Under the pieces are notes generated by a model. That model was not told the origin of the DNA. It saw nothing but the letters and a program-made list of their open reading frames with translations, and made no database searches. Positions 26,801-63,502 of a DNA stretch of 64,000 nt are shown here, piece after piece. Numbering within the stretch: position 1 is the first letter of the stretch; every line of letters starts with the position of its first letter. Made by a program: the position numbers and the translations under genes. Origin of the DNA: Bacteroidales bacterium (GTDB lineage Bacteria > Bacteroidota > Bacteroidia > Bacteroidales > GCA-2748055); contig JAOZUK010000009.1 of NCBI GenBank assembly GCA_029938715.1, forward strand, positions 3,504-67,503, written 5' to 3'.

Positions 26801-27260
26801 CAGACAAACTCCATCCCCTCCCTAATAGTCCATTTCCTGCCTGGCTGTTATAAGTAATGGCAAGCTGGGGAACCATTCCTTTATTTCCTGAAGGAACCTC
26901 TATGGGGATGCTATAGGTCGCTGCCCCTGTTGGGCTTACTCCGGGTTGTCCATTTATCGTGCCTACAATAAAACTTCCATCCAGTGTACCTATGGAGTCA
27001 AGGGTATTGCCAGGTGGAACAGTGTGAGGAGGTTCTTCAATATTCCAGGGATCGGCATTGGCTATAAAGGAGCCATTGCCGTTGGATGAAAATGTGAAGC
27101 CGGCATCCAGGGTAATAGTATTGTGAGCAACGATCTCCACATTATCATAATGCGAAAAAATGGTATCCACCGTAACTGTTTGATTGTATATAAGTGTATC
27201 GTTAGCAAGAACCTGAACCGATACAGATAGAAGCAATAGGGTTGGGAGGATTTGTTTCAT
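20826..27260 (-). CDS. Rhs/YD-repeat polymorphic toxin with SpvB-like N-terminal, FG-GAP/VCBS and TcdB-mid-like regions
   Basis: Signal peptide MKQILPTLLLLSVSVQVLA (ATG at 27260; the track TTG is at 27269). SpvB-like block GMVPQLAITYNSQAGNGLLGRGWSLSG. Several GDFxGDG repeats and many YD repeats (YxYDxxGN). Rhs core end GRIYDPLLGRFLSPDP...YVLNNPLKYVDPSGY, followed by a ~265-aa variable tip. Confidence 0.9.
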   Translation of the reverse strand: MKQILPTLLLLSVSVQVLANDTLIYNQTVTVDTIFSHYDNVEIVAHNTITLDAGFTFSSNGNGSFIANADPWNIEEPPHTVPPGNTLDSIGTLDGSFIVGTINGQPGVSPTGAATYSIPIEVPSGNKGMVPQLAITYNSQAGNGLLGRGWSLSGLSSIVAVGKTKYYDNESSIISDTNSECRVAWDGQRLIALNSAGLDADSFRTEHVSNIKITREQIYYDLFWFKVTTPDGRTMEYGFTANSRLSLDASTEWKWMLNKVSDRNGNSIEYTYEIDEDTGEILLSEIKYGGKAPSFPVNTISFHYTTRDDISYGYIHNDLIVNDQLLKDITIESYNESFGKYEFFYDTTKSETLLDEIVQYDKDNYRFNATKINWEFPVPNMEQTPSTTYINSGPDYLDFSGDFTGDGYTDLVTVNTDNWVYYLYKGSTVGIKTVHDFSDILPRSYVYEGWSELRQMCIVHCNGSSIPDTYNFNDIENVSAGDFDGDGIMELMVEVLEWSPLIPHLSDNYNIFNGIDYVNANCGGDSNKYSYPDSIVLDYNVCRFINFDIDASTYFQRVRTLKYGPDNLGLKLEMDYSPDILKLGYSPFCIDKKVQYIDDNYEKRTHVLGTEVDPEWMELNGDGFYDYIQDSSTFFHIMLYQPEADSFAYENTINSGYLGSIDLNGDGISGYVSLGNEEFDSITVSVSSLWGEYCTSIGGCTFPDIITEWEDFLEAYGLEYEYETYLSVSCNDVDDLDCWSSFRSETSVTYPDESLGRELFIDHLASRGPRVSLGHYDGHDSIFSKAIASDIDANGRNELLIFSKDTLKMIFYDFKPSITGTTISYNYDSVNCNFKLGEDVKEGDFNGDGIVELVDPKNDKKICFVDSGKPGHFVTSITNGLGIETRYSYKPLTNSSVYKKENTAIFPVIDFIAPWYVLSSISSDNGVADSSFIEYNYQGAKIHLEGKGFLGFAKRKVENDLSDISKVSWLDYDTTFFHSYSVSDTISSVAGYLQFTDTHTSIDSIDVHKYLVKTDSVTIQNVQAGTTTTNSFDYNNDGFISEKGMNVNGEATITEKYDYISAGWYVNALPQYVSKTYTRNGNSETDSIYYSYESTKGNFIQKKDFYKSDREIVTSYSDFDSYGNPKTIETSGKRGANLSVTSIETDLTYSSDGRFLLSKEGPLDYKTTYEYDSSTGMLESQTTPNRTNTTLEYGPFGAMKKITGPNLIEKSSRLFWAHDHPSSPDSALFYNWTAVSGTSPALKFFDERGRELRSVAMGFNNDSIYVDTKYDTKGRVSQKSMPYYSTNSPLWTTITYDNFGRMLTVTSPDTAVSTYNYSLLRTTVTTIKGSDTIETSKLVNAMGETTQSEDNIDNVVHYSYYPDGKLKFSYVSTHTSDTTSFSYDAQGNRTSISDPDAGTITSMYDAFGQLLRQINAKNDTTTYQYDVAGRTTKLTDARGDIFYSYVTDTTTAAFGQLDSVYNSDHSLQEVYTYDSDYGMLLTHTRTGVNKTFTNTFTYDWFGRPMTRTYPSDFELEYAYTSNGDLDQVRGNGLTLWSCNDANSLGQITSYSQGGNSTSLTYNMHGELNRVYTAGVMDMCYTFDDMGNLSSRKDDRSDQMEVFEYDNLNRLIGIDYYDPNGYVSTADLNIGYDNCGNIISKTDVSSTINYGEGEKPHALTSIENPNKSYDPPPQNISYNVFNKMSLISDTLSGGGLLELDIKYGLGNQRIKTTQARDSIVERVKYFNGDYEEDSTSAGIKKYHYIYGGTGLTAIFVMEGSGNDTLHYVLSDHLGSLTAIVNASTSEVKNYSFNAWGMPRNASDWTISDTSYLFAGRGFTGHEHLSDFNLINMNGRIYDPLLGRFLSPDPIVQAPGNPNSYNRYSYVLNNPLKYVDPSGYLGDPTTLTKYSPFSEADAYGDNSRFSQAPNMISSYGGGSGFGNNWFDIQTDPTGGWWKAPTGEMVNRYSGKRMNTGEFRSRYLDPSSSISESDKQFVGFGTRYNEDLDIVESHFGWEITEIPMSSNGYKDVTAEFDEQLSNTMIYFSLAKHRFDREFPKDRLRKLLFFRSKVNDHAVFDIKRTSFSRANLGSEYGFYRGQSFRYDDFGNYNFGLAARSFGLSLKDALRGAGLNQIRKLDPDLNNSLGYFDHTRDTQLIIMGFFHEY

Positions 27261-27283
27261 GGTGTGCAAGGTGTTTGTGGGGA

Positions 27284-27731: not shown

Positions 27732-28904
27732 TTAGTTGGTGGTTTCCGGATTCTTCAGCTTATCAATCTCTTCTTTCAGTACTTTAATATCCTCAGCCTG
27801 TGCTTTTAGTACACCATCCATGCTTTGAATGGTTTCAGACTGAGAATGAACAAGCTCTTCTAATATTTGGATAGTACTAGCTTGCAACTGTACAGATTCT
27901 TCCATGGTCTGGATGGCAGTGTCTTGAAATTGCAGAGATTCTTCCAAGAATATGATAGCTTCTGACTGGGATTGTAAAGCTTCCTCATGAGCCTGAAATT
28001 TCTTGGTTAGATCGTTTACGGATTCATCCTGTTCTTTTATTGCTTCAACCAATACCGGTATAAGACCAATGTAATTGACACTTAAGTATCCATCCTGCCC
28101 CTTCTTTACAAGTTCGGGATAAAACTGCTGAACCTCTTGGGCCGAGAAACCAATCTGATCTTTTGTGTACCTATCTTCCGTATATTCTTTAGTACGGGGA
28201 TCAATTTTCATTGTATCGGCCACTTCGGGAGGAATCGAATTTAGCTCAGCTGGAGTTTTAAACTTATACTTTATAGCGGTAAGGTTTTTTAGCTTGACTA
28301 ATTGATTGGAATCCTCTAACTTGAGTGGTCTAACATCTTTTTTAAGAGTTATGTCTGAATTGTTAGTAAATCCGTCTACAGTAAGATGGCCAGCTATTTT
28401 CACTTCATCCGTAAAATAACCTGCATATCTCCCGGATATCCCAACTTCTGACCCATTGATACAGCCGAAGACAGCTGCACCGTTCCGGGTTCCATACAGA
28501 TAGCCAAACACTCCGTAATTGTATCCGGAAATCCCATTTCCGGCGATGCCTCGTAATCCAAAGGTCCGGTAATTTGTTTGAGTTGAAGAAGTTGCTTGAA
28601 ATTGAGCTCCCACAAGCTTATATCCTCCATTGTGTGCTATGTGGCCCCAAACTGAAAAGGAATAATCGCTTCCATTGTCTCCACTAGCGCTTTTATTAAA
28701 CTGCGCACAACGTTGACTACTTGTCGTCGTGTTGTTCTCTACATACAGAGTACTATAAGTATTACCCTCTCCATTAATTGATAATTCACTGGCCGGAGTC
28801 GTCTCTCCGATTCCAACGTTGTTGTCATCAGCAACAGTCAGTTGAGCATGCATTTGGATCAATAATCCTACAAGAAAAAGAAAAGTAATTTTAAATCGTT
28901 TCAT
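27732..28904 (-). CDS. Tail-fibre-domain (peptidase S74 intramolecular-chaperone-like) protein with C-terminal coiled-coil repeats
   Basis: Signal peptide. S74-like block SDITLKKDVRPL...AIKYKFK...GFSAQEVQQFYPELV...YIGLIPVLVEAIKEQ. Followed by five ~14-aa Q/E-rich repeats. Confidence 0.7.
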   Translation of the reverse strand: MKRFKITFLFLVGLLIQMHAQLTVADDNNVGIGETTPASELSINGEGNTYSTLYVENNTTTSSQRCAQFNKSASGDNGSDYSFSVWGHIAHNGGYKLVGAQFQATSSTQTNYRTFGLRGIAGNGISGYNYGVFGYLYGTRNGAAVFGCINGSEVGISGRYAGYFTDEVKIAGHLTVDGFTNNSDITLKKDVRPLKLEDSNQLVKLKNLTAIKYKFKTPAELNSIPPEVADTMKIDPRTKEYTEDRYTKDQIGFSAQEVQQFYPELVKKGQDGYLSVNYIGLIPVLVEAIKEQDESVNDLTKKFQAHEEALQSQSEAIIFLEESLQFQDTAIQTMEESVQLQASTIQILEELVHSQSETIQSMDGVLKAQAEDIKVLKEEIDKLKNPETTN

Positions 28905-31371: not shown

Positions 31372-34113
31372 TTATTCAGGCCAGTATTTCACCCGAACAC
31401 GCCTAATAACTGCGATAAAAGTGAGTATTGCTAAAATCCCTAGGATAATCTGAATAGTTCTCCGATGATGGACTATCGGATTTGGGTCTCCAATAACCTG
31501 AAAGCCGGCCCAAAAATGAGGGTGAGTAAATGAGTTTGGAGTGGACTCCAGGTATTTAATTTTTGCTTTTCTTAGTGCTTCGGTTTTATTTAATCCTTTC
31601 GAAAGTAAATGGTAATAATCGATCATAATCCTGGAGCTAGATATATCTTCAATTGGCCAGAGAGTATGTATAACGGATGATGCTCCGGCAAGAAGAAAAC
31701 TCCTTGATATGCTGAGCATGCCTTCTCCTTCATAAAATGGACCCTTACCAGATTCGCAAGAATTTACAACAACCATTGGTGATTCTATGCTAAGGTTACA
31801 GATTTCAAAATCGAATAGTTTTCTAAATGTTGAGTTTTTCTCTATCCCAAGAATTAAATAGGGGTTTCCAGTAATCTCAGAATCTGCGACCGAATGAGTA
31901 GCAAAGTGAAGTATTTTTCCCTTACTAGCCTTTGCAAGGCTGTCATTTGAATGGATATCAATTATTTTTTCACCTTTGAATTCTTTAAGAATTTCTTCAA
32001 TTTCCATTGAGCTATTTATAATCGAAAGGTTCCCATTGTCTGATTCATTAAAATCAGGAGCAATGGCTACTATGTTAGGCGGCCTCCTGAGAATTGCACG
32101 ATCGGGCTTATTTATCATTGTCGAGTTTGGCGCATATCCTATTGCATAATCATAAAGAAGGTAGTTCTGATCAGAGTACGATTTTAAACTGTCAATATCA
32201 CGCACCAATAAATCAAAAGGAATGAGGATCAGCTCACCGTCTGGAATGATTGTGAGATTTCTCGTTCTTACCCAATCCTCTATTGGATGAAAAAGAGCAA
32301 TATATAAACCATGTAACCAGGATATTAATTGCTTATCAGTATTGCCTTTAGACTTGACTGTATTAATAGAAGAAGATGAATTAAACACATTATATATTTG
32401 ATTCGTAAAATTATTGTCCACAATGCTTTGTGATATTCTACATGAATCTTTTGTTATTAAAAATGTATAGATCTTTTGCCCTTTATCAGGATCTTTTTCT
32501 CCTAATGAAAATTCAATGACAGTCTGCTTTTTGGACAACCTAGATTGAAGGTCAACCAATGGGTTGTGATTGTGCTTCGTTTCTGCAAGTGAGTCGAATC
32601 TGTTGCCAAATATTCTTTGGTGAATATTTTCGAAAGATCTCCTAAGAGTGAAAAGCTCATGTTTCATTTGATCTACCTGAACAGAGTTTGACTCCTGGTT
32701 CACTTCTCCCTCATAAATCAGGTTAGTGAGACTAAAGATTTGTTCGTACATGGACAGAAGATTATTTACAGAATCCTCCTCCATACTACTCATATACATC
32801 CAGTTTTTTTCTTTGATTTCGAAATTTAGTTCCAGTGTTTTACTCAGTGAAGCAAATCCGTAAGCCTTCTCTTTATAATATAGTAAACCTGTATACTCAA
32901 ATAATTGAAGTGCCACATCAATTCCATGAACAAAGAAATCTCGCTGATTGCCTATCAGAAATAGACGGCTTTCCCTCGTTAGATAACTATTTTGGATTCT
33001 CGTAAGAACGTAAAAGGCTTCGTCAGCGGTTTTCAGTGCAACTTCAAGTATTTCAATTGCTTTTGTTCTCAAGTTATTACTGTTGGCTAAACCATTCAGA
33101 GCTACCAGTTTGCTATTATAAGTTTTCAAAAGGCGGATGTCAAGCAAAGGCTTTAAATCAACAGGATTGGAAAATATATTGGTATTGTAAAAATCAGGGC
33201 AAATTGAGATTAATGCATCCTGCAGAAAATTTAGCGCTTCTTTATAATCCTCTGATTCTATATAGAATTGAGCAATATGGTAGTAGCAGTCTGAAATATA
33301 TGCATGATTACTGCCATAATTGAATAAATAATTTTCGATTGCTTGATTGTAATAACTGAGTCCCATGTCGTGATCCTTACTCTCAATTAGGAATTGTCCG
33401 TAGTCACGATAAACGTTGCCCAATTGATAGTAGGAGGACCCATGTTCCAACTTCCACCTTTCAACACTTGCTTTATAATACTTGTCTGCCTGTGGAGAGT
33501 TCTTCAATGCTTGATATGTCCGTGCTACATTAAAATAGACGCTTCCCAGGTGAGTGAGGTCATACGCTTCTTTAATTATTTTAGATTCAAATAGAAGTTT
33601 TAAAGCTTCAGTGTAATTCTCTTGATCATAGAGGACTAGCGCTTTGTTTAGTTTTAATAAAGAAGACCTTTCCTGAAACCCAAGGGTAAAATTTGCTTCT
33701 TCAGATAGGAGTCGTTCTGTTTCTTCATAATACTCATTGGCCAATAAATACTCCCCTATGTGCCTGCAAAGAACTCCCTGGTTAATTAGAATGTCGAAAT
33801 AAAGAGTTTTTTCCTGTATGGAGTTCATTTTACAATAGGCTAAAGCAAGTTTATAGTTCTCTTTTGCTTGCTCGTAAAGCCCCAAATTCTTAGCTGCCAC
33901 CCCTAGATTACTATATAGTACAGCAATATTGTAATCAGGTAGATTGTAATCAGATTCTAGTATATGGTTTAGGATCTGGTAGGATTCATAGATATTGCCT
34001 TTCTCTCTGGCTAGCAGGTAACTATTAAACAGATCGCCAGCAATTTCCACATCACTTTGACCAAATGTTATAGTAGTGACGAAGAGAAAAAAGACAAAGG
34101 AATGAAACCTCAT
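31372..34113 (-). CDS. TPR-repeat CHAT-domain (caspase-like) protein with C-terminal membrane anchor
   Basis: 913 aa with a signal/anchor at the N-terminus and many TPR units. The CHAT His/Cys dyad contexts are ILHFATHSVAD and VVVNSCESGKG. C-terminal TM segment IQIILGILAILTFIAVI. Confidence 0.85.
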   Translation of the reverse strand: MRFHSFVFFLFVTTITFGQSDVEIAGDLFNSYLLAREKGNIYESYQILNHILESDYNLPDYNIAVLYSNLGVAAKNLGLYEQAKENYKLALAYCKMNSIQEKTLYFDILINQGVLCRHIGEYLLANEYYEETERLLSEEANFTLGFQERSSLLKLNKALVLYDQENYTEALKLLFESKIIKEAYDLTHLGSVYFNVARTYQALKNSPQADKYYKASVERWKLEHGSSYYQLGNVYRDYGQFLIESKDHDMGLSYYNQAIENYLFNYGSNHAYISDCYYHIAQFYIESEDYKEALNFLQDALISICPDFYNTNIFSNPVDLKPLLDIRLLKTYNSKLVALNGLANSNNLRTKAIEILEVALKTADEAFYVLTRIQNSYLTRESRLFLIGNQRDFFVHGIDVALQLFEYTGLLYYKEKAYGFASLSKTLELNFEIKEKNWMYMSSMEEDSVNNLLSMYEQIFSLTNLIYEGEVNQESNSVQVDQMKHELFTLRRSFENIHQRIFGNRFDSLAETKHNHNPLVDLQSRLSKKQTVIEFSLGEKDPDKGQKIYTFLITKDSCRISQSIVDNNFTNQIYNVFNSSSSINTVKSKGNTDKQLISWLHGLYIALFHPIEDWVRTRNLTIIPDGELILIPFDLLVRDIDSLKSYSDQNYLLYDYAIGYAPNSTMINKPDRAILRRPPNIVAIAPDFNESDNGNLSIINSSMEIEEILKEFKGEKIIDIHSNDSLAKASKGKILHFATHSVADSEITGNPYLILGIEKNSTFRKLFDFEICNLSIESPMVVVNSCESGKGPFYEGEGMLSISRSFLLAGASSVIHTLWPIEDISSSRIMIDYYHLLSKGLNKTEALRKAKIKYLESTPNSFTHPHFWAGFQVIGDPNPIVHHRRTIQIILGILAILTFIAVIRRVRVKYWPE

Positions 34114-42381: not shown

Positions 42382-43482
42382 ATGAAAAAAATAATTATTT
42401 CTTGTCTTGCACTCCTTTCAATTTTCTGTGTTGTCGCTCATGGCCAATTAGAGATGAACTCTAGTGGTGAAGTTGGTATCGGAGCAACTCCAACAACTGG
42501 AATAGATCTCTTTACGCCAGAAGCAAAAATAACTCATCTAGGCGTTAATGCATCACCGGTCAGTGGTATCGATTTTTATACTCCAGAAGCAAAAATATCC
42601 ACTTTGGGCATTAACGTAACCCCAACTGGAGCTCATCAGCTTTGGGTTCAAGGAATAGCAAGGTTTGGCTATTCTGCAACAATGTCATGTTTTGAATTCA
42701 AATATCTTGATATGTATGATATGCAACTCTTACCAACAATGAATAACTCTTGTGTGATTGGTTCATCAAGTTATGGTATTAGAAAAGTCACTGCATATAA
42801 CTTTACTACTTTATCAGATAAAAGGCAAAAAGAGAATATCCAAACCCTCTCAGGATCCCTCGATCAAATTATCAGACTACAGGGGGTGAAATATGATCTT
42901 AAAAAGGAGTTTGCATATGATGAGGCTAAGATCTCAGATGAGAGTTTGAAAACCAAACTTGATCTAGAAAGAAAAGGTTTCATTGGTTTCTTGGCCCAAG
43001 ATGTCTATGAAGTCTTGCCTGAGGTCGTATCATATGATGAGGATGCTGATATCTATACTATGAATTATTTAAGGATCATTCCGGTACTAGTTGAAGCTAT
43101 CAAAGAACAACAAACTCAAATAGATGATCTGAAGCAATTAGTTGCTTCGTCAAGTGGATCATTAAAAGGGGCAGCAGTCTCTGGCACCTCATTAGATGAG
43201 GTAGGTGAAAATATGGAGCTAACAAGTTTATTCCAAAACCATCCCAATCCATTTTCTGTAGAAACAACAATTGGCTACTATTTGACTGAAAATATCACAT
43301 CGGCATCATTATTCGTTTATGATATGACTGGAAAGCAATTAAAAAACTTCAATATATATGAAAAAGGCAGTGGGGAGGTTATCATATCCAGCGGAGAATT
43401 AGACGCCGGATTGTATATGTACTCTCTTGTTGCTGACGGAAAGCTAGTCGGGACGAAGCAAATGATTTTAACAAAAAATTGA
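42382..43482 (+). CDS. Tail-fibre-domain (peptidase S74 chaperone-like) protein with T9SS CTD
   Basis: LSDKRQKENIQTL...LQGVKYDLK...GFLAQDVYEVLPEVV...YLRIIPVLVEAIKEQQ is paralogous to 27732..28904. The C-terminal tail is HPNPFSVETTIGY...GLYMYSLVADGKLVGTKQMILTKN. Confidence 0.7.
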   Translation: MKKIIISCLALLSIFCVVAHGQLEMNSSGEVGIGATPTTGIDLFTPEAKITHLGVNASPVSGIDFYTPEAKISTLGINVTPTGAHQLWVQGIARFGYSATMSCFEFKYLDMYDMQLLPTMNNSCVIGSSSYGIRKVTAYNFTTLSDKRQKENIQTLSGSLDQIIRLQGVKYDLKKEFAYDEAKISDESLKTKLDLERKGFIGFLAQDVYEVLPEVVSYDEDADIYTMNYLRIIPVLVEAIKEQQTQIDDLKQLVASSSGSLKGAAVSGTSLDEVGENMELTSLFQNHPNPFSVETTIGYYLTENITSASLFVYDMTGKQLKNFNIYEKGSGEVIISSGELDAGLYMYSLVADGKLVGTKQMILTKN

Positions 43483-43489
43483 TTGCAAA

Positions 43490-45151
43490 ATGAGAAAAAT
43501 TTTGTTTTTCGCCGCATTTCTTGCACCATTTTGCAGTCTGTTTTCAAGTCCTATTGACAGTTTAGCAGCAAAAAAGGTTGCTTTGAACTTCATGGACAGC
43601 AAACGCATTGGTCCAAATACTATACTCAATCTGGTTTCTGACGTGAATGAAACCCAGACCATATTTTATGTTGTTAACTTCGAAGAAGGAGGTTGGGTTC
43701 TAGTTTCAGCAAGTAATTCCACTGTTCCTGTCTTAAGTTATAGCCTTCTTGGTGCATATAAAACTGAAGATCAGAAACCAGAGGCCTTCTCATATCTGAT
43801 TGAGTCATATAAGGATAAAATCGTGAATTCTATTGGCAAGGAATTGACAAATTCGACAATAAAGGCGAAGTGGGAAGAGCTACTATCAAATTCCAGTTTG
43901 AAATCTGCTACTTCTTATACTCCTGGAGATCAATTGCTCAACGTATCTGGAAGAGGCCATGTGAGATGGAATCAATCATTTAATTGGAGTGGAGGTTGTA
44001 GTCCAAGGTACAATGATTTCTTTCCCTCTGGAGGTTCAGGGTGCACCTGTGATGAGGTGCCTGCTGGCTGTGGACCAGTTGCAATGGGGCAAATTATGTG
44101 GTATTGGGAATGGCCTGAAGCATCATCTTATCGCACTTACGATTGGGAAGATATGCCCGAATATATTAGTAGCTCAACATCCCAAGCTGATGCCGATGAG
44201 ATTGCTCATTTGCTTGATGATATAGGCAACGAAGTAAATATTTCGGAATTATGTGCTGGATCCATGGCCACGGTTAATAATATTGAAGATGCATTTAACG
44301 ACGAATTTGGATTTGAAGCTGCAAAAAAGTACATTAAAAATGATTGGCTATATGGTTCAGCTTGGGAGGACCTGTTAAGATCTGAGATCGATAATAACAG
44401 ACCTGTCCTATATAGAGGAGATAAAAGTGATTTGAGCACGTCAAAACACATATTTGTTATTGATGGTTACGACAGTTCTGACCCTGATTATTTCTGGTTC
44501 AATTTTGGATGGGGATATTATGGCAATACAGCGTATAATACTTCCCGTCACTACCTCAGTAGCATAACCCCAGACACATATGATTTCACGGATAACCAAA
44601 TGGCTGTTGTTGGTATCTCGCCCACATATACTGACGTAGCACCAGATGATGTTAATATTACTACTGTTGCTTATACAACCGTTACGGGGACGCTGGCTGA
44701 AGATGCGCAACAAAATATTTCTCTTCCATCTACCGGTAGCACATTAACAATCATGAACGGTGGTAACTATACTTTGACTGCAGGTAACTCAATTACTCTT
44801 CAAGCGGGGTTTAAAGCTGACGTTGGTAGTGTATTTTCGGCTCAGATAAATACTGACTATCAGGAGGAGATGGATATTTCTGTAACTAGCTGGACAAATA
44901 ACTTCTCTCCGAATGGGACTAATGACGAGCTTTGTTTCATTGTAGATAATGCAGATTCTTGGGAATGTGAGGTATTCACCCTTGCTGGGTCGGCCGTATT
45001 TCAAAGTGCTGGTTCAATTAATTCATCTATCGTTTGTGTTTGGGACGGCTCTGGTGTATCATCATCTGGTTACTACACCTGTCACATCAGATTCAAGAAC
45101 AATTACGGACGAGATTTGGAAAATTCATTCAATGTCTACGTATCTTTTTAG
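43490..45151 (+). CDS. Peptidase C10 (streptopain/SpeB-like) family cysteine protease
   Basis: N-terminal inhibitor-like prodomain (AAKKVALNFM...FYVVNFEEGGWVLVSA). Catalytic Cys context AGCGPVAMGQIMWYWEWP. The later HIFVIDGYD is consistent with the His region. Confidence 0.7.
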   Translation: MRKILFFAAFLAPFCSLFSSPIDSLAAKKVALNFMDSKRIGPNTILNLVSDVNETQTIFYVVNFEEGGWVLVSASNSTVPVLSYSLLGAYKTEDQKPEAFSYLIESYKDKIVNSIGKELTNSTIKAKWEELLSNSSLKSATSYTPGDQLLNVSGRGHVRWNQSFNWSGGCSPRYNDFFPSGGSGCTCDEVPAGCGPVAMGQIMWYWEWPEASSYRTYDWEDMPEYISSSTSQADADEIAHLLDDIGNEVNISELCAGSMATVNNIEDAFNDEFGFEAAKKYIKNDWLYGSAWEDLLRSEIDNNRPVLYRGDKSDLSTSKHIFVIDGYDSSDPDYFWFNFGWGYYGNTAYNTSRHYLSSITPDTYDFTDNQMAVVGISPTYTDVAPDDVNITTVAYTTVTGTLAEDAQQNISLPSTGSTLTIMNGGNYTLTAGNSITLQAGFKADVGSVFSAQINTDYQEEMDISVTSWTNNFSPNGTNDELCFIVDNADSWECEVFTLAGSAVFQSAGSINSSIVCVWDGSGVSSSGYYTCHIRFKNNYGRDLENSFNVYVSF

Positions 45152-55891: not shown

Positions 55892-56524
55892 ATGATACTC
55901 ATGAAGACAGTTATTTATACCAGGGTAAGTAGCCAAAGTCAGGATAATCAGAGACAGATTTTAAACCTCAAGAGAATTGCGGATGAGAAAAACTGGAAGA
56001 TGAAACGCACTTTCCAAGAGAAGGTTTCTGGAACAACCAGAGCAAATTCAAGATCTGAGTTTTATAAAATGATTCAATACATCGAAAACAACAGTATTGA
56101 TTTAGTATTGATAAGCGAGGTTTCAAGAATTGGCAGGCGGGTACTTGATGTCCTCAATAGCGTTGAACTACTACACAAAAAACATACAGGTATATTCATT
56201 CAACAGTTCAACATTATCACCTTCCAGGATGGTAAAGAGGACCCAATCGCCAAAATGCTACTACAAATGCTCAGCATCGGTGCGGAAATGGAGAATAGTA
56301 TGCGAAAAAATAGGCAGTTGGAAGGGATTCAGCTGGCAAAACTTAATCAGAAATATAAAGGTCGGCAAAAGGGAGCAAAGGCAACTCCATCTAATCTATT
56401 GGAAAAGTATTCTGATGTTTACGATTTGATAAAGAAAAGTGACCTGTCATTAAGAAGGATTGCACAAATCACAGAACATAGTATTAACACTGTTAGGAAG
56501 ATCAGGAATATAGCTTCTCTATAG
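55892..56524 (+). CDS. Small serine recombinase (resolvase/invertase family)
   Basis: VIYTRVSSQSQDNQRQ catalytic-serine motif, LVLISEVSRIGRR, and a C-terminal HTH (LSLRRIAQITEHSINTVRKI). Confidence 0.85.
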   Translation: MILMKTVIYTRVSSQSQDNQRQILNLKRIADEKNWKMKRTFQEKVSGTTRANSRSEFYKMIQYIENNSIDLVLISEVSRIGRRVLDVLNSVELLHKKHTGIFIQQFNIITFQDGKEDPIAKMLLQMLSIGAEMENSMRKNRQLEGIQLAKLNQKYKGRQKGAKATPSNLLEKYSDVYDLIKKSDLSLRRIAQITEHSINTVRKIRNIASL

Positions 56525-56548: not shown

Positions 56549-57433
56549 TTATTTAATTATAATTTTGGTTCTTGATTTCTGAACTTCTCCAAAAGGAAAC
56601 ATTAGGACAAATGCATTCCAGGTATTATAAAAAAAGTGATATTCAAATACACATTGATCATCCCCATTAAGGTTCATCTGAAATGAACCATCTTTTCGAT
56701 GGTTCGTGTTACTTAAGTAATCCTGAACAAATGGCCAAGTGGCATTCAAAGTTCTATCCCAATAGATTCTCCCAAATGTCTCTGTAAAAGAATTAGATTG
56801 TATAAAATTCTGTGTTTGACAGTTCAGGTTTTTCAATGATACGCCTTTCAAAACCAAAAGTGCACATCTCTTTGATGAGCACTCTACAAATTTTCTCATA
56901 GTGGCATGATATGAGGCTCCAAATTTCTGTGCAAGAGCAATTGGTGTACCTATTTCAAGCGGATGCTTCTTAATCAACTCGTCAAAATACCTACCTTGGA
57001 ATAGTACCTCAGAAGCAAAATAGCTTGCCTCCAATTCGAACTCTTCTTTTGCGTCAGAGCTAAGAGAGATTTCATCATCTTCAAGGATTTCAAACATCTC
57101 TCTCTGCCATGGTAACACATCATGTCCAACCTCATGAAGTTTTATGAAATTTCTTCTTGGGGGAATCAAATTCGAATCTACATAAATGGTTTTTTTCTTA
57201 CGATCCAATATCCCATTTACCTTTTTCAGGGCATGCTTTAAAATGTCTTTAGATTTTGAAATATAGTTTTTTGGGATCCTTTCTATATATCTACTCTCAC
57301 TTATTTGTAACTCTGTGTATTTTGCAATCTTATCTGTCGGTGTAGGAAACACACCGACAGATTTACTCTGTTTAAGAATATCGTAGGCAATATCCTGTAC
57401 CTTTTCTTGTGATGTGAGAGGATTAATTGCCAT
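56549..57433 (-). CDS. ImmA/IrrE-family zinc metallopeptidase (CapP-like position)
   Basis: HEVGHDVLPW (HExxH) in a 294-aa protein. It overlaps the upstream XRE gene by 11 nt. Confidence 0.75.
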   Translation of the reverse strand: MAINPLTSQEKVQDIAYDILKQSKSVGVFPTPTDKIAKYTELQISESRYIERIPKNYISKSKDILKHALKKVNGILDRKKKTIYVDSNLIPPRRNFIKLHEVGHDVLPWQREMFEILEDDEISLSSDAKEEFELEASYFASEVLFQGRYFDELIKKHPLEIGTPIALAQKFGASYHATMRKFVECSSKRCALLVLKGVSLKNLNCQTQNFIQSNSFTETFGRIYWDRTLNATWPFVQDYLSNTNHRKDGSFQMNLNGDDQCVFEYHFFYNTWNAFVLMFPFGEVQKSRTKIIIK

Positions 57434-57782
57434 CTTTTTGGGATCGTAGGAATTTCAGGTATTTCATCAACTCTTCCTCTTCCTCTTCATTGAGATTCTC
57501 AGAAGATAAGGCAAAGCTTGTTAACGACTTTCTATTATTGTCTCCATTCTCTTTGTTTTTTACAATCCCCGCAGTTATTAATAGGGCATTAAACTCAACA
57601 TTATAAAATTCCGCCAACTTATAGAGAATGTTTACGGATGGACTCTTAATCTTATTATTTTCTAACTGACTAAGATAAGCATTTGAAATCTTCGTCAGTA
57701 ATTCAACTTGCCTAAGTGATAATTTCTTTAATTCTCGCTGGTCCTTAAGCAACTGACCTAAAGTGGGTTTCTTTGTAGCCAT
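57423..57782 (-). CDS. XRE-family HTH regulator (CapH/ImmR-like position)
   Basis: LKDQRELKKLSLRQVELLTKISNAYLSQLENNKIKSPSVNIL plus an acidic C-terminal helix. Divergent from the Ubl operon. Confidence 0.8.
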   Translation of the reverse strand: MATKKPTLGQLLKDQRELKKLSLRQVELLTKISNAYLSQLENNKIKSPSVNILYKLAEFYNVEFNALLITAGIVKNKENGDNNRKSLTSFALSSENLNEEEEEELMKYLKFLRSQKDGN

Positions 57783-57814
57783 GACATTAAGGTGTTGATT
57801 TTCAAGAACAATAT

Positions 57815-57878
57815 AAGCAATTATGCTTGAAATAACAAACAGTGCTTAATACAAGCAACGAATAACAAGCGGTGCTTG
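57815..57878. promoter_or_regulatory. Three AAGCA/TGCTT palindromes (candidate operators) in the divergent intergenic region
   Basis: aagca-atta-tgctt (57815-57828), tgctt-aatac-aagca (57843-57857) and caagc-ggt-gcttg (57866-57878). Confidence 0.5.
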
Positions 57879-57906
57879 ATATAGTTAATGTTATTTCGTA
57901 TCTTTG
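57870..57906 (+). promoter_or_regulatory. Candidate Bacteroidota-type promoter for the small ORF and Ubl operon
   Basis: TATCTTTG (57899-57906) fits the TAnnTTTG -7 consensus. A CTTG at about the -33 position lies inside the third palindrome. Confidence 0.35.
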
Positions 57907-57941
57907 TATCGTTATCGGATTATTTACTTAAAAAATATCAA

Positions 57942-58070
57942 ATGGCGAAAGATTCAGATGGTAAGAAGTATAACCGCATCCCTGGGTATACTCGAAAGGT
58001 TGGAGGGAAGACCGTTAGTGTCAGACCTCATGTTCGTAGTAATCGAACAGATAGTAAAGGAGACAAGTGA
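57942..58070 (+). CDS. 42-aa highly basic small ORF, first gene of the Ubl operon
   Basis: MAKDSDGKKYNRIPGYTRKVGGKTVSVRPHVRSNRTDSKGDK has 12 K/R in 42 residues. The ATG is 36 nt after the candidate -7 box, and the stop is 26 nt before the Ubl ATG. The longer track ORFs 57888 and 57904 start upstream of the putative promoter. Confidence 0.35.
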   Translation: MAKDSDGKKYNRIPGYTRKVGGKTVSVRPHVRSNRTDSKGDK

Positions 58071-58096: not shown

Positions 58097-58387
58097 ATGA
58101 TTGAAAATTTAAACAGTAACAACAGGAAAAAGGGACAAGATAATGAGCTTGAAATCGTCATCAAGACCCCTAACGGAGACTGGACCAATACATTTTTGAA
58201 GACAACAAAAGTTGCTGAAGTTATTGCTGCAGTTATTCAGCATTTTAACTACGCAAGCAATGGTAAGTATGAGCTTCGTCTTGAGTCCGATCCAGACACA
58301 TTATTGCAGCCGGAGAGACCGCTTGTAAGTTATGGCATTATTGATGGGACGGTCTTAGTGTTCATTGACTTTGGAGCTGCTGTATGA
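58097..58387 (+). CDS. bilA: Ubiquitin-like (single beta-grasp) protein, BilA-like
   Basis: 96 aa. The alternating beta/alpha pattern (ELEIVIKTPNGDW...KVAEVIAAVIQHF...YELRL...LVSYGIIDGTVLVFIDFGAAV) fits a beta-grasp fold. Its stop overlaps the E2 start (ATGA). The fold is inferred, not computed. Confidence 0.6.
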   Translation: MIENLNSNNRKKGQDNELEIVIKTPNGDWTNTFLKTTKVAEVIAAVIQHFNYASNGKYELRLESDPDTLLQPERPLVSYGIIDGTVLVFIDFGAAV

Positions 58388-58866
58388 GTGTGCTGAAAGA
58401 AGTTTCTTTAATGAAAATCAGAAAGGAACTTAAGGATTGTATTGATTATGGAAAAAGGATAGGTTGGATTTTGTCAGACATTGATGAATCCAACCTATCT
58501 TATACCGTTCAGATGAGTTCTCCTATTGATGGCGAAGTTTATATAGTTGAAGTTATCTTTGATAATTACCCTGAGATCCCTCCACTAATAGATTTTGTTC
58601 ATTATCAAACTGGGCAGAAGAATATTCCTAATGCCTACCCTAAAAACAAGGACTCTTTTTTTCACCCGAATGGCCCATGTATATGCAATCCCTGTTCTCG
58701 CAAATCTTATAAAGAATTTGTACGTACAGGTCCTCATGGCGATTGGAAATTGATTGGATGGCAAAAGAATCCCAAAGTTGGGACACTAATAAGCATGGAT
58801 GCAATATTAAGAACAATCTATTCACGAATAAGCAATCCCGAATTTTATGAAAAGAGGATGGGTTAA
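58384..58866 (+). CDS. bilB: E2 (UBC-like) conjugating enzyme homolog, BilB-like
   Basis: 160 aa with FFHPNGPCIC, that is the HPN motif followed by a candidate catalytic Cys, as in UBC-fold E2s. N-terminal helix MKIRKELKD. Confidence 0.7.
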   Translation: MSVLKEVSLMKIRKELKDCIDYGKRIGWILSDIDESNLSYTVQMSSPIDGEVYIVEVIFDNYPEIPPLIDFVHYQTGQKNIPNAYPKNKDSFFHPNGPCICNPCSRKSYKEFVRTGPHGDWKLIGWQKNPKVGTLISMDAILRTIYSRISNPEFYEKRMG

Positions 58867-59452
58867 TAAGTCATTTCAGTACTTAAAGCTTGGAGATAGG
58901 ATTTCTCCAGCGGATAATGTCAGATATTATTTTAGCATTGAAGTATTGGAATTTACAGAGTCCGTATTAAAAGAATATGGGTCAATTGAACCCTCACATG
59001 AAGGCATTGTTCTTTGGGCAGGTAGAAAGAATGACAATAAAATCATTGTTAATTCAGCAATTGCTCCGGACACAGATTCTTCCGGCACCCATATAATCAT
59101 AAAACCGGAGTCGATGGTTAGGTTTATTACTTTTTTGTCTGATAGTAAACTTACATATGTTGGGCAGATTCACTCTCATCCAGGGAGCTGGGTTGGCCAT
59201 TCATCAGGTGATAATGATCTCTCTTGTTTCAAAAGAGAGGGATTAATATCTTTTGTTGCCCCTAACTATGGATTAGAAGGAATACTCCCTTTTAGTCAAT
59301 GTGGAGTTCACAGATATATGGATGGGAATTTCACTTTGTTGTCCAAAACTTATGTTGCAAAAAGAATGAAGATTCTTGGGATTCAAGCCAAATTATTGGA
59401 TCTGAGAAATAAAATGGATATAAGATGGAACGTGAAGAATGGTATAGACTGA
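58847..59452 (+). CDS. bilC: JAB/JAMM metalloisopeptidase, BilC-like
   Basis: HSHPGSWVGHSSGD gives an exact H-x-H-x7-S-x2-D JAMM motif, with an upstream Glu (SHEGIVLWAG). Overlaps the E2 gene by 20 nt. Confidence 0.8.
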   Translation: MKRGWVNKSFQYLKLGDRISPADNVRYYFSIEVLEFTESVLKEYGSIEPSHEGIVLWAGRKNDNKIIVNSAIAPDTDSSGTHIIIKPESMVRFITFLSDSKLTYVGQIHSHPGSWVGHSSGDNDLSCFKREGLISFVAPNYGLEGILPFSQCGVHRYMDGNFTLLSKTYVAKRMKILGIQAKLLDLRNKMDIRWNVKNGID

Positions 59453-60831
59453 GAAATGATCGGATGAATAGAGTGGATGATGTGAACCTTGCTCAATCCA
59501 CCAAAAGATCAATAGGTGTAGTAATTTCTCCAGAGCACCTTGATCACTATTCCATTCAGATTATGTCCTACATGTCGTTGAATATGCTTTCTCGGTGGTG
59601 TCCTTCCTTTACAATAGATCTACCTGATGAAAATCAATGTATCATTCCTGGATTTAGAAATAGAACACTTAAGGAAGTTGCTTTAGAGTTAGTGCAAAGA
59701 AATGATCCTTTCGGAGAATTTACTGTGAATAGCATCTTACCATCAGATTACAATATAGTACTATATATAGGTGAATGTAGTCATGCAGAAGGATCAAATA
59801 TGATCTGGATTGATGCAGAAGGATGGCTTGCAGGGTATGGTCAGAATATGTATAGTAATCTTAATAAGCGTAATAAAAATAACAAGAATCCAATTGGTCC
59901 TTCGTTCGCTGCCTGTTTAGGTGTGTCAGAAGTTTTAAAAAGGCATCTTGGTCTTCAAGTAAGTGAAAGTTTCATCCGGTGGTATTCTATTTATGATTTA
60001 CAATCGGATTCCAATCATGTTACTCTTTCTAACCCACCTATTTCAAGATTATTGGAGGTTGGAACGCTGCACCAAATAGGTTGTGGAGCAGTAGGATCCT
60101 CATTGGACTTGCTGTTCTCATTTCTCAACATCAAAGGTAACATCCATCTCATAGATTATGATAGTGTGTCTGTTCCTAATACTGCCAGTTCAATGGTATT
60201 TACGGCCAAGGATGGATTAGAAGAAATAGATAAAGTGGACAGCTGTTACAGTTTCTTAGAAAAGGTTGATGGACTTATACCTTACCCTCACAAATGCGAC
60301 TACGGTACATTTATCAAAAAGCACGATTTGTTAAATGATTATCCAGATATAGTTTTGTGTTTAGCTAACGAGAAAAACATCTGGTCAACAATCCAACATA
60401 ATTATCCACCTTTGGTTCTTCATGCCACGACTTCACCAAATTGGGGGGTGAATCTTGGAAGACATATCCCTTTTCAAGATTGGTGCATTGTTTGTCGTTT
60501 TGGTATAGATGAGTACGAAACAATTCCTGTATGCTCTCAGGCCAAGGTAGATTCTGGAGGGGAGAAGGAGGAAATTTTAGGAATATTGCCCTTTCTATCC
60601 ACAGCTGGTGCAATATTAATACTATCTGAAATTCTTAGATCAAGAATAGACGGATATTGCCTAACCAAAGATAATTTTGTGCAATTTTCATTTAAGGATA
60701 CCAATGTAGGATTTATCAAGTTAAAGTTGTCAAGAAACGAAAATTGCACTGTATGTAATAATCAGACAAAAGAGGAATATTCATTTCTTAGGAGACAAAT
60801 ATCATATAATCAAATTCATAAGGGTGAATAA
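59425..60831 (+). CDS. bilD: E1-like (ThiF/MoeB-fold) adenylating enzyme, BilD-like
   Basis: Rossmann motif IGCGAVGSSLD and two CxxC pairs (WCIVCRFG and NCTVCNNQ), typical of E1/ThiF zinc sites. Overlaps the JAB gene by 28 nt. Confidence 0.7.
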   Translation: MEREEWYRLRNDRMNRVDDVNLAQSTKRSIGVVISPEHLDHYSIQIMSYMSLNMLSRWCPSFTIDLPDENQCIIPGFRNRTLKEVALELVQRNDPFGEFTVNSILPSDYNIVLYIGECSHAEGSNMIWIDAEGWLAGYGQNMYSNLNKRNKNNKNPIGPSFAACLGVSEVLKRHLGLQVSESFIRWYSIYDLQSDSNHVTLSNPPISRLLEVGTLHQIGCGAVGSSLDLLFSFLNIKGNIHLIDYDSVSVPNTASSMVFTAKDGLEEIDKVDSCYSFLEKVDGLIPYPHKCDYGTFIKKHDLLNDYPDIVLCLANEKNIWSTIQHNYPPLVLHATTSPNWGVNLGRHIPFQDWCIVCRFGIDEYETIPVCSQAKVDSGGEKEEILGILPFLSTAGAILILSEILRSRIDGYCLTKDNFVQFSFKDTNVGFIKLKLSRNENCTVCNNQTKEEYSFLRRQISYNQIHKGE

Positions 60832-60957: not shown

Positions 60958-60965
60958 TATATTTG
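60958..60965 (+). promoter_or_regulatory. Candidate -7 box for the deaminase gene
   Basis: TATATTTG fits TAnnTTTG, 17 nt upstream of the ATG at 60982, inside a 150-nt AT-rich gap after the E1 gene. Confidence 0.3.
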
Positions 60966-60981: not shown

Positions 60982-62499
60982 ATGGGAGATCCGGCAAAAT
61001 CTTTAATCACCGAAGAAAAACCTAAAGACTCTCTCGATATAATAAAATCAACACATACGTCTGAGATTGTAATAGCTCTTTGTGGTCAACTTGGAACTGA
61101 TTTGAAAAAAATAGAAGAATTATTGACTACTGAGCTAAAACATAAATTTAGATATGAATGCCAGACTATTAAGTTAAGCTCCTTTATTTCAAGATATACC
61201 GATAAAAAGCTTTCATCAATCATAAATTCCTATGAAAGGATTAAAGCTGGGATGGATGGTGGCAATGAATTAAGGGAAAAATATGACAATCAAATATTGG
61301 CCGAGTTTGCTATACAAAAGATTATTTCAGATCGAGTTAGCGAAGAATCTACTGAAAATCTTGAGCAAGAAAAATTCGATGACAGAAGAAAGTGTTTTAT
61401 TATTGATTCCATAAAGCATCCAGCTGAGATTAAGCTCTTAAATGAGGTTTATAGAGATTCATTTTATGTTATTGGAGTTTTTTCTCCAATAGGACTAAGA
61501 GCGAAAAATCTCGAAAAATCGTTTGGCCTAAATTCAATATCAAAGGTATATGAGCTTATCAATCGAGATACTGGTGAGGATTTATTATATGGTCAAAAAG
61601 TTGAAGAATCATTCATAAATTCAGACTATTTTATCAGAGTTAGTTCTAACGAGAAAAGAAAGCTCAAGCCTAAGATCGAAAGATTTTTAAACTTACTATT
61701 TGACATTGGTATTAATACTCCTTCTCCAAATGAGACCCCTATGTACCAGGCCACTGCAGCGGCTGCAAATTCAGCTTGTCTTTCAAGGCAGGTTGGTGCC
61801 TGTATTACTGATTCAAGTGGAGATATTCTGTCATTAGGATGGAATGATGTTCCGACTTATGGGGGAAACTTATATCCTAACTCGGATTTGGATATAGATG
61901 AACGATGTTACAATATTGGAGATTGTGAGTGCGCAAATATAAAAAAGAAAGAAAAAATTAAGAGTGATATACTCACTGAGTTAAATAACGCTGAAATTTT
62001 GAAGCCTGGTGAGCATACCTCAGTTATCAACGATATTCTTGACAGAAATGGGATCAAAAACCTTATAGAGTTTGCTCGTTCAATACATGCGGAAATGCAT
62101 GCAATAATTCTTGGTAGCCAAAAGTCTGGCAGCAAAATGGTTGGAGGAAAGCTATATTGTACTACATATCCATGTCATAACTGTGCTCGTCATATCATTG
62201 TTGCTGGAATTAGTGAAGTATATTACATCGAACCATATAAGAAAAGTTTAGGAATTGAATTGCATGCAGATGCTATTACAGAAGATGAAAATGAAAATAA
62301 TAAGGTGAGAATTTTAATGTATGAAGGTGTTGCACCAAAAAAGTACATGGAGTTTTATAAATTAGTTTCTGATGATCGGAAAATAAAGGTGAAATATCAG
62401 GATTTATACACAATAAAACCAAAAAGTACGATTACCTTAAGGGCCCTTCATCAGCTCGAAGCATCGGTTTCAGAAAATCTCAAGAAGAAAGGCTTGTGA
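60982..62499 (+). CDS. Two-domain protein: degenerate P-loop kinase-like N-domain plus dCMP/cytidine-deaminase zinc domain (anti-phage dCTP-deaminase / AvcD-like architecture)
   Basis: C-terminal CDA motifs SIHAEMHAI (H-A-E) and YPCHNCARHI (P-C-x2-C). The N-terminal ~230 aa carry a Walker-A-like remnant, VIALCGQLGTDLK. The total of 505 aa matches the described fusion. Confidence 0.7.
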   Translation: MGDPAKSLITEEKPKDSLDIIKSTHTSEIVIALCGQLGTDLKKIEELLTTELKHKFRYECQTIKLSSFISRYTDKKLSSIINSYERIKAGMDGGNELREKYDNQILAEFAIQKIISDRVSEESTENLEQEKFDDRRKCFIIDSIKHPAEIKLLNEVYRDSFYVIGVFSPIGLRAKNLEKSFGLNSISKVYELINRDTGEDLLYGQKVEESFINSDYFIRVSSNEKRKLKPKIERFLNLLFDIGINTPSPNETPMYQATAAAANSACLSRQVGACITDSSGDILSLGWNDVPTYGGNLYPNSDLDIDERCYNIGDCECANIKKKEKIKSDILTELNNAEILKPGEHTSVINDILDRNGIKNLIEFARSIHAEMHAIILGSQKSGSKMVGGKLYCTTYPCHNCARHIIVAGISEVYYIEPYKKSLGIELHADAITEDENENNKVRILMYEGVAPKKYMEFYKLVSDDRKIKVKYQDLYTIKPKSTITLRALHQLEASVSENLKKKGL

Positions 62500-63211: not shown

Positions 63212-63502
63212 TCAATTCAGAAAACAGGTTGTTCCTGAAATTATTTGTGTTGCACCTGGTTCCGAATGCAGACCCAAATCCAATACCATTTTCACAAGCT
63301 CGTCCAACCGGATTCCAAGGCCATCCTGACAGCCATCCTGAGCCAAAATAAAGCCATTCTTCACCTCTATCCTGCCGCAGACAACTGGAGTACCATCTGC
63401 ATCCCAACCTCGCTTAATTGTGCCGTAAAACCTGCGGTCTCGAGAAGCTTGCGCCATAAACAATTCTGCGATTTTGAACTGGTTTTCTTTTTTCTTGTCC
63501 AT
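63212..63502 (-). CDS. Hypothetical small protein
   Basis: 96-aa ORF with an ATG start (MDKKKENQFKIAELF...). No family was recognised. Confidence 0.3.
   Translation of the reverse strand: MDKKKENQFKIAELFMAQASRDRRFYGTIKRGWDADGTPVVCGRIEVKNGFILAQDGCQDGLGIRLDELVKMVLDLGLHSEPGATQIISGTTCFLN

Follow-up and report, generated by a model that had tools for sequence, protein, structure and literature searches.

The window analysed here, a stretch of 64,000 nucleotides (nt) from a Bacteroidales bacterium, carries at 58097-60831 four open reading frames (ORFs) on the plus strand, which overlap one another by 4, 20 and 28 nt and whose catalytic residues are all intact. They encode, in this order, a ubiquitin-like protein (Ubl), an E2, a metallopeptidase of the JAMM/JAB type and an E1-like adenylating enzyme. 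From the letters of the window alone, an original prediction had seen in them a complete conjugation operon of the bacterial ISG15-like (Bil) type in a Bacteroidota genome. Four translationally overlapping genes are found exactly where this prediction had placed them, and the evidence from profiles, structures and gene neighbourhoods agrees with the reading as a Bil-type operon. The genes are as follows (lengths in amino acids, aa):

58097..58387, plus strand: Ubl (BilA-like), 96 aa
58384..58866, plus strand: E2 (BilB-like), 160 aa
58847..59452, plus strand: JAMM/JAB metallopeptidase (BilC-like), 201 aa
59425..60831, plus strand: E1 (BilD-like), 468 aa, with an inactive N-terminal adenylation-like domain, an active ThiF-type adenylation domain (GCGAVG at 219-224, Asp244), the candidate catalytic Cys370 and a Cys4 zinc site (354/357/441/444)

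The conjugation operon

The order Ubl-E2-JAB-E1 is identical in 24 of the 24 related loci compared (L001-L024), which come from Bacteroidota, a few other bacteria and Nitrosopumilus, and finding the same genes in the same order across 24 loci is far beyond chance. With more than 200 homologs of the E1, matching at full length with 36-60% identity, the operon family is a populous and mainly Bacteroidota clade. The closest solved relatives of its enzymes in the window are BilB, BilC and BilD of Ensifer aridi TW10 (PDB 8TYX-8TZ0).

For the E1, a family profile built from 28 relatives finds as its best match in the Protein Data Bank (PDB) the E. aridi E1 (8tyz_A, BilD; E=2.1e-12), over residues 23-296 and with the N-terminal domain included. 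MccB and the NEDD8 E1 follow, and these, like the SUMO and ubiquitin E1s, BubCD (E=0.008) and MoeB (E=0.035), match the Rossmann core only and more weakly than BilD does. BilD is also the best PADLOC match of this protein (E=1.2e-10, 38.6 bits), whose Pfam ThiF score of 26.7 bits falls just under the gathering score of 28.1, and none of the four proteins is covered by an NCBIfam model, the window E1 being without a match at E<=0.01. The names given to relatives of the E1 are ‘hypothetical’ and ‘ThiF family adenylyltransferase’, and for many of them a Pfam assignment to PF27312 (BilD_N) has been precomputed; our own Pfam scan gave no BilD_N even for these, and the model is probably absent from the set used. 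The GxGxxG motif and the two CxxC pairs that had been predicted for this enzyme are present as GCGAVG (219-224), CIVC (at 354) and CTVC (at 441), and the glycines G219, G221 and G224, D244, C370 and the zinc cysteines 354, 357, 441 and 444 are all invariant in the family.

The JAB protein carries the exact HxHx7Sx2D motif announced for it (HSHPGSWVGHSSGD, residues 109-122), and HSHPGSWVGHSSGD is the sole match to this pattern in a six-frame translation of the whole 64-kb window. Glu52, His109, His111, Ser119 and Asp122 are invariant in 15 family sequences. In the PDB the protein matches the BilC deubiquitinase 8tyx_B (E=2.6e-9), with Glu52 aligned with the position of the catalytic E33, and BilC is its best PADLOC match too (E=5.2e-9, 33.9 bits); in Pfam it reaches Prok-JAB below threshold.

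Since searches of the PDB with the sequences of the E2 and the Ubl found nothing meaningful, fold prediction was needed for these two. The AlphaFold model of the E2 has a mean local confidence (pLDDT) of 96 and a predicted template-modelling (TM) score (pTM) of 0.91, and its top Foldseek matches are exclusively E2 enzymes of the UBC fold. The best TM-scores are those to E. aridi BilB (8tz0_C/D, 0.60-0.70, versus about 0.5 for eukaryotic E2s), and BilB is the best PADLOC match of the sequence (E=1.1e-3, 16.7 bits). The invariant cysteine of the E2 family is C101, in an I-C-[NH]-P motif, whilst C99 and C104 vary; judged by this conservation, C101 would be the catalytic residue, and neither C99 nor C104. 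His118, within an H..DW motif, is conserved as well, and C101 and His118 align with the Cys and the last His of the E2s of Type II Bil systems. The ‘HPN-Cys’ motif originally read in this protein (FFHPNGPCIC) is there at residues 92-101, but HPN is not conserved across the family and is ruled out as a true E2 signature: His alone is largely kept, and N96 sits in a small insertion that is found in the window and in L001 only.

The Ubl consists of one β-grasp domain (approximately residues 17-94) preceded by some 15 disordered aa. Its AlphaFold model (pLDDT 82) has β-grasp topology, and with it Foldseek recovers ubiquitin, ISG15, SUMO, NEDD8, Hub1 and the Caldiarchaeum ubiquitin (557 matches at E<=1e-3, TMt ~0.8), so that β-grasp, UBC, JAMM and E1 folds, whose absence would have spoken against the original prediction, are all recovered. 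In Pfam the window Ubl stays below the YukD threshold, and relatives reach its gathering score. The protein ends in ...DFG93-AAV, G93 being its last Gly. Because the Ubls of the family always end in D-[FL]-G and a short tail (usually x-A-V), with Gly93 invariant, this glycine would be the residue of conjugation and the tail would need removal. In three family members (L011:1530-2072, L021:6500-6988 and L022:6356-6994) the Ubl has an extra N-terminal multiubiquitin-like domain, which at 36% identity (E=3e-6) matches a repeat of a protein that RefSeq calls ‘multiubiquitin domain-containing protein’; since these three members add such a domain, the number of β-grasp domains is plastic within the clade.

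Regulators and the divergent control region

Upstream of the operon, and transcribed away from it, lies a pair of regulator genes, separated from the operon by a control region and a very small gene:

56549..57433, minus strand: CapP-like Zn-metallopeptidase of the M78/ImmA-IrrE family, 294 aa; HEVGH at residue 100; PADLOC capP E=8.4e-19; Pfam Peptidase_M78 1.4e-9
57423..57782, minus strand: CapH-like repressor of the XRE family, with a helix-turn-helix (HTH), 119 aa; PADLOC capH E=1.6e-11; Pfam HTH_3 2.1e-12
57783..57941, no strand assigned: divergent control region with repeated palindromes of the AAGCA-N4-5-TGCTT type and a 21-nt direct repeat at 57831-57851 and 57861-57881
57942..58070, plus strand: gene of a basic peptide of 42 aa (MAKDSDGKKYNRIPGYTRKVGGKTVSVRPHVRSNRTDSKGDK), with 12 K/R versus 4 D/E; the first ORF after a promoter-like box

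The capH stop overlaps the capP start, and the CapH-like protein is 83% identical to its counterpart at the same position in L001. What defines the CapH/CapP family is found here: an XRE HTH protein and an M78 peptidase with HEXXH adjoin one another and diverge from the operon. By analogy with the characterised pairs, the CapP-like protein would be the DNA-damage-activated protease of the two. Among 18 non-redundant loci of the family, 11 have a peptidase of the CapP type in their flanks, and the regulators of the relatives come in three forms: HTH plus M78, a fused HTH-M78 protein, and a σ70-like protein with a CapH-like protein and CapP. The last of these is the divergent upstream module of L005, L012, L013, L015, L016, L020 and L021, with a CapH-like protein of ~113 aa, an M78-type CapP and a σ70-like protein recognised by Pfam Sigma70_r2 (2.8e-5); it had previously been recorded in 24 systems, for the cyclic-oligonucleotide-based anti-phage signalling systems (CBASS; Lau et al., 10.1101/2022.04.27.489752). 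The 42-aa peptide is absent from these seven Bil loci. A PD-Lambda-2_B signal met in family flanks does not come from the σ-like protein, nor from the CapH-like one, and is probably a cross-match to the M78 peptidases.

Between capH and the promoter-like box, at 57800-57895 of the window, short palindromes are dense (AAGCAATTATGCTT, TGCTTAATACAAGCA, AAGCGGTGCTT); the copies of the 21-nt direct repeat are spaced 30 nt, and the palindromes and the repeat are partly conserved in L025. They are candidate operators of CapH. The box itself, TATCTTTG at 57899-57906, resembles the -7 promoter element of Bacteroidota, and a TAnnTTTG box occupies the same relative place in L025, L026 and L001, although with 43 occurrences of this motif on the plus strand of the window the evidence is moderate only.

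A conserved basic peptide at the head of the operon

The peptide gene ends 26 nt before the Ubl gene. An upstream basic mini-ORF had been part of the original prediction, as a peculiarity of this operon; the gene is real, but its conserved start is the ATG at 57942 and not that of the 60-aa ORF from 57888, and it is not Bil-specific. No relative of it was found in L001-L024, which could have made it spurious, and this is ruled out by coding constraint in closer relatives and in 80 further loci. In L025 (4444-4572) and L026 (2849-2977), whose E2s are 76% identical to that of the window, a 42-aa gene is called at the same place. Comparison of the window gene with that of L025 shows 14 codons changed synonymously and 7 changed conservatively, the 25 nt differences being distributed as 2/5/18 over the three codon positions. 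All 81 copies compared are intact at 40-50 codons, 80 of them begin with ATG, and their nucleotide diversity by codon position is 0.22/0.18/0.53. The consensus is MAKDSxGrKfNRIPgY..V.GK..xVK.HvRSNRxDSKG, and purifying selection is clear. Since the amino-acid sequence is what is conserved, a role as a cis-acting leader ORF alone fits poorly.

Searching 1.84 billion representative proteins returned 42 clusters of the peptide (38-119 aa, 55-79% identity), and a metagenome scan returned 181 loci; the family has no match in Pfam or NCBIfam. One cluster at 90% identity includes proteins of Bacteroides caccae (658 contigs) and B. fragilis (494 contigs) that are annotated as ‘hypothetical’. Large ‘repeat’ matches to the peptide (P0188, P0222) turned out to be compositional artefacts, and P0181 is assumed to be alike.

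That the peptide belongs to Bil in particular is ruled out by the 80 further loci (L031-L110), in which a Bil operon follows it only once (L036). In 64 of these there is enough upstream sequence to assess the regulators, and in 35 of the 64 the gene lies just downstream of a divergent cassette of the CapP type, usually σ70-like plus CapH plus CapP (capP 1.6e-61, capH 1.9e-10). The cargo that follows includes CBASS cyclases (1e-110, 1e-131), a Pycsar cyclase (2e-118) with a transmembrane effector, a metallo-β-lactamase (MBL) protein with an E2-E1-JAB fusion, and PDC-S45 (2.5e-115), PDC-M36A and an uncharacterised 415-aa protein. Loci without a CapP cassette still resemble defence or mobile-element settings. 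The peptide, then, travels with regulator cassettes and defence islands and not with Bil. Searched by term, the CapH/CapP papers make no mention of an ORF of this kind, which is the one unreported element of the window operon, the rest being of a known kind.

Neighbouring genes and genomic context

Downstream of the operon stands a further defence gene:

60982-62499, plus strand: anti-phage dCTP deaminase; NCBIfam NF041025 457.1 bits versus a cut-off of 400; PADLOC dCTPase 1e-153

This deaminase has a promoter-like box of its own (TATATTTG at 60958, ~20 nt upstream of the start), it is absent next to the relatives and it is a known defence gene in its own right, all of which exclude it as part of the Bil system. 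Elsewhere in the family the flanks hold integrases, AbiEii, Iet, JetD and PADLOC candidate systems. A search of viral contigs found no member of the E1 family and no copy of the 42-aa peptide.

A serine resolvase (55892-56524, plus strand) adjoins capP, as it does in L001 (1822-2457), L025 (2513-2929) and L026 (916-1332), and the synteny resolvase-capP-capH-(peptide)-Bil is common to the window and these three closest relatives; the regulators and the Bil cassette may move as a unit. Downstream of the island, a 96-aa ORF (63212-63502, minus strand) is homologous to an 85-aa ORF of L001 (9522-9779, minus strand) that lies beside a tyrosine integrase. Between the Bil operon and this ORF there is the dCTP deaminase in the window, and an AbiEii pair with other genes in L001, so that the stretch looks like the variable cargo slot of an integrative element that ends beyond the window.

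At larger scale, GC (guanine plus cytosine) content is ~0.44-0.49 before ~14 kb and ~0.34-0.41 from 14000 to 64000, a fall that agrees with a large region, variable or acquired horizontally, in which the Bil locus lies. The window is Bacteroidota-like, with a C-terminal sorting domain of the type IX secretion system (T9SS), and its closest relatives are in Cyclobacteriaceae, Cytophagales, Chitinophagaceae and Flavobacteriia. Other genes in it are:

20826-27269, minus strand: Rhs/YD-repeat polymorphic toxin of 2147 aa, with SpvB, TcdB-mid, RHS repeats and a C-terminal Ntox44
20306-20836 and 19317-20207: small ORFs after the Rhs toxin, candidate immunity genes
27732-28904, minus strand, and 42382-43482, plus strand: two Peptidase_S74 (endosialidase chaperone) proteins
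31372-34113, minus strand: TPR-CHAT protein, 913 aa
36298-39417, plus strand: T9SS sorting-domain protein, 1039 aa
39736-41418, minus strand: ISL3 transposase
43490-45151, plus strand: C10 cysteine protease with an I69 inhibitor domain

Discussion

Two types of Bil have been described. Type I has a two-domain, ISG15-like BilA ending in Gly, was tested in Collimonas (sp. OK412) and four other proteobacteria, and conjugates BilA to the central tail fibre of the phage (Millman et al. 2022; Hör et al. 2024). Type II comprises the former CEHH/6C operons (Chambers et al., PMC10557695), 78% of which have a single β-grasp Ubl in which BilC cuts off as many as nine residues after the conserved Gly, and 15% of which have divergent capH/capP. 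For comparison with Type II we used the operon of S. fredii NGR234 (L027, pNGR234a), in which a fragment of the E1 matches E. aridi BilD at 93% identity, and three further Ubl-E2-JAB-E1 operons from plasmids were compared as well.

The window operon shares with Type II the gene order, the single β-grasp Ubl of ~98 aa with a Gly and a short tail for removal by JAB, the homology of the JAB protein, the inactive N-terminal adenylation domain and Cys4 zinc site of the E1 and, in a subset of Type II, the divergent upstream capH/capP. In spite of these likenesses it is not a Type II operon, because its E2 lacks the CEHH arrangement and its E1 is distant. The Type II E2 reads C-x5-E-x-H-x4-H (Cys, then Glu at +6, His at +8 and His at +13), whereas the E2 of the window family reads C-x4-R-K-x-Y (R at +5, K at +6, Y at +8) and has only the Cys and the distal His in common with it. 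It is also shorter (160 aa against 205 aa in S. fredii), as is the E1 (468 aa against 519-535 aa), in which the segment around the catalytic Cys is much reduced. E1s of the window clade score 32-54 bits against the S. fredii E1, versus 100-186 bits against those of the Mesorhizobium huakuii and haloarchaeal single-Ubl operons, and in a tree they form a branch separate from Type II; the catalytic and zinc residues align across every operon compared. RefSeq labels the Type II BilD ‘E2 ligase fold family C protein’, unlike the window E1 with its want of any NCBIfam match. Other RefSeq names in Type II are misleading, with BilB entered as ‘putative metal-binding protein’ and the Ubl as ‘DUF2604 domain-containing protein’.

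With Type I, on the other hand, the window shares four genes in order, an E2 without the Glu and His of CEHH, an E1 of ~450-470 aa and a collinear E1 layout (G219 and C385 in Collimonas, G219 and C370 here). The Type I Ubl, however, has two domains and ~163 aa and ends in Gly, as opposed to one domain, 96 aa and a three-residue tail, and Type I occurs in Alpha- and Betaproteobacteria, the window clade being mainly Bacteroidota. The PADLOC BilB, BilC and BilD models were taken to represent Type I, and its BilB model matches the E2s of the window, M. huakuii and Natrinema but none of Type II. Type I operons were also sought on plasmids, with an E. aridi fragment, the window E1 and the Natrinema E1 as queries, and what these returned were Type II operons and unnamed operons with a single Ubl, with none of Type I among them.

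These unnamed operons of M. huakuii and of haloarchaeal plasmids (L029, L030) have the same gene order, with Ubls of 86-98 aa, E2s of 151-158 aa and E1s of 453-477 aa. Their E2 motif, C-x4-[NS]-R-[KL]-x-Y, is near that of the window, their E1s are 25-30% identical to it and their Ubls end in G-SGV and G-ASE; they are uncharacterised, and in M. huakuii, too, an HTH gene and an ImmA/IrrE gene form a pair divergent from the operon. The single-Ubl versions on haloarchaeal plasmids (L030, H18/H20) are the more distant ones (25-29%), and the four-gene operon itself occurs in ammonia-oxidising archaea (L017, Nitrosopumilus sp. chromosome OY763927.2; L018, a Thaumarchaeota metagenome-assembled genome), with E1s ~38-39% identical. 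The presence of the operon in archaea as well as in bacteria suggests inter-domain transfer of Bil-like systems.

From this comparison of sequences, the operon belongs to a clade that lies outside Type II and its published catalogue, and that combines enzymes resembling those of Type I with a one-domain Ubl bearing a conserved Gly-x-Ala-Val tail. The idea of a distinct subtype, which the original prediction had raised, survives in this way, but the reasons given for it have to be replaced by an E2 without CEHH, an E1 far from Type II and a Ubl unlike that of Type I. The single-domain, 96-aa Ubl is confirmed and yet is no departure from Bil, single-domain Ubls of ~98 aa with a conserved Gly and a short tail being known for Type II and mentioned for Bil subtypes (PMC10557695, PMC11601603, 10.1101/2022.05.11.491447). 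The flanking regulator pair is likewise real, and identifiable as CapH/CapP, but a pair of this kind, divergent and ahead of Bil operons, had been reported before (PMC10557695); as for the flanking deaminase, the gene exists and, as an independent dCTP deaminase not conserved beside relatives, stands outside the system.

Two other kinds of system are close enough to be compared. The CapH/CapP module of Lau et al. shares with the window the XRE HTH protein, the M78 peptidase with HEXXH, the divergent arrangement and a promoter region in common with the immune operon, and its published σ70+CapH+CapP and fused CapH-CapP variants both appear among the relatives of the window; the 42-aa basic ORF between the regulators and the cargo is a trait of the cassettes of the window and of many Bacteroidota. 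The Bub operons and Cap2/Cap3 of Type II CBASS have in common with it the use of E1, E2 and JAB chemistry in immunity or stress response, often under CapH/CapP. The window locus, by comparison, has no DUF6527 protease, no CD-NTase and no fusions of Ubl with E2, JAB with E1 or E2 with E1.

In view of this, the window locus is very probably an intact BilABCD-type Ubl conjugation system under CapH/CapP-type control, and most likely it serves in anti-phage defence. For its regulation, processing step, chemistry, target and phenotype we infer from the published biochemistry of Bil and of CapH/CapP, whose mechanism and association with Bil have been reported (PMC10557695, PMC13373217). In unstressed cells, the CapH-like repressor would sit on the palindromic operators at 57.78-57.94 kb. 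DNA damage or infection would produce single-stranded DNA and so activate the CapP-like metallopeptidase, which would cleave CapH and free the promoter near 57.90 kb, to give one messenger RNA spanning the gene of the 42-aa peptide and, after it, the four genes with their translational coupling. The JAMM peptidase would then trim the Ala-Ala-Val tail of the pro-Ubl and expose Gly93, which the E1 would adenylate and bind as a thioester on Cys370, before the Ubl is passed to Cys101 of the E2, with His118 nearby. Finally, the E2 would attach the Ubl to lysines of a target. Granted an intact system under such control, this target is reasonably likely to be a phage structural protein, by analogy with Type I, and its tagging would hinder the assembly of virions or lessen their infectivity; conjugates could also be stripped off by the JAMM peptidase. 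The peptide may be a co-induced small basic protein that binds nucleic acid or modulates the regulators.

Several points weigh against this interpretation. Sequence searches of the PDB, with the single sequence and with the family profile, gave nothing meaningful and no BilA for the Ubl, and for the E2 neither Pfam nor the same PDB searches gave a significant match, BilB not being found. PADLOC has no BilA match for the window Ubl, and its Bil scores at the window are weak (17-39 bits), even if they are the top matches for the three enzymes; its BilD model gives the window E1 38.6 bits compared with 55.4 bits for a bona fide Type II E1, and standard defence finders would probably not call the locus. 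The enzymes look Type I-like in a comparison made by descriptions, layout and PADLOC models, and the promoter and operators are candidates proposed from motif resemblance. In addition, Bil targets and phenotype are established for proteobacterial Type I only, the targets of Type II are reported as unknown, and Bub systems are reported as not shown to protect.

The last two reports also lend themselves to the main rival explanation, a DNA-damage or stress-response pathway in which the same enzymology would act on cellular targets, the Bub operons having the same regulators. CapH and CapP respond to DNA damage generally, and the family is present in free-living marine archaea, both of which would suit conjugation to host proteins. 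Nevertheless, known defence and mobile-element genes are enriched in the family flanks, the only Bil systems tested by experiment defend against phage, and CapH/CapP cassettes lie overwhelmingly with immune operons, for which reasons we regard the host-protein pathway as unlikely and keep to defence against phage. Decay is a much less probable explanation: the low-GC surroundings are rich in mobile elements (the resolvase and the ISL3 transposase), as would befit a non-functional conjugation remnant on a mobile island, but the four ORFs are full length relative to their relatives, their catalytic and zinc-binding residues are intact and family-invariant, and translational coupling is kept. Hardly credible at all is a sulfur-carrier system of the MoaD/ThiS and MoeB/ThiF type for cofactor or thio-modification biosynthesis, which could appeal to the near-threshold ThiF score and to the names of the E1 relatives, but which is contradicted by a UBC-fold E2 and a JAMM peptidase that are always co-encoded, by a Ubl that ends in G-x-A-V instead of a free GG and whose model matches ubiquitin, ISG15 and SUMO, by an E1 that matches BilD with its N-terminal domain at 2e-12 (MoeB, 0.035), by the absence of moa, moe and thi genes from the 24 neighbourhoods and by the finding of no homologous locus in a molybdopterin or thiamine context.

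It is also possible, although we would hold it with some doubt, that the peptide is a new functional accessory of Bacteroidota cassettes of the CapH/CapP type (often σ70+CapH+CapP), co-induced as the first gene whatever the cargo, and, separately, that the clade of the window constitutes a third type of Bil.

In conclusion, Bil is the clearest bacterial counterpart of the antiviral tagging by ubiquitin and ISG15 in eukaryotes, and it has been tested in a few proteobacterial representatives, whilst a large and mainly Bacteroidota clade has a complete version that combines features of both described types. Because this clade scores weakly on the PADLOC Bil models, the prevalence of Bil may be undercounted. 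The residues for mutagenesis are defined (G93 of the Ubl; C101 of the E2, and not C99 or C104; E52, H109 and H111 of the JAB protein; C370 of the E1), and the prediction that goes with them is that the Ubl would need processing by JAB. Beyond Bil itself, a finding that may be of wider use is the conserved tiny protein, a candidate component of the regulation or deployment of immune cassettes, which heads many differently loaded CapH/CapP defence operons, those of human-gut Bacteroides included.

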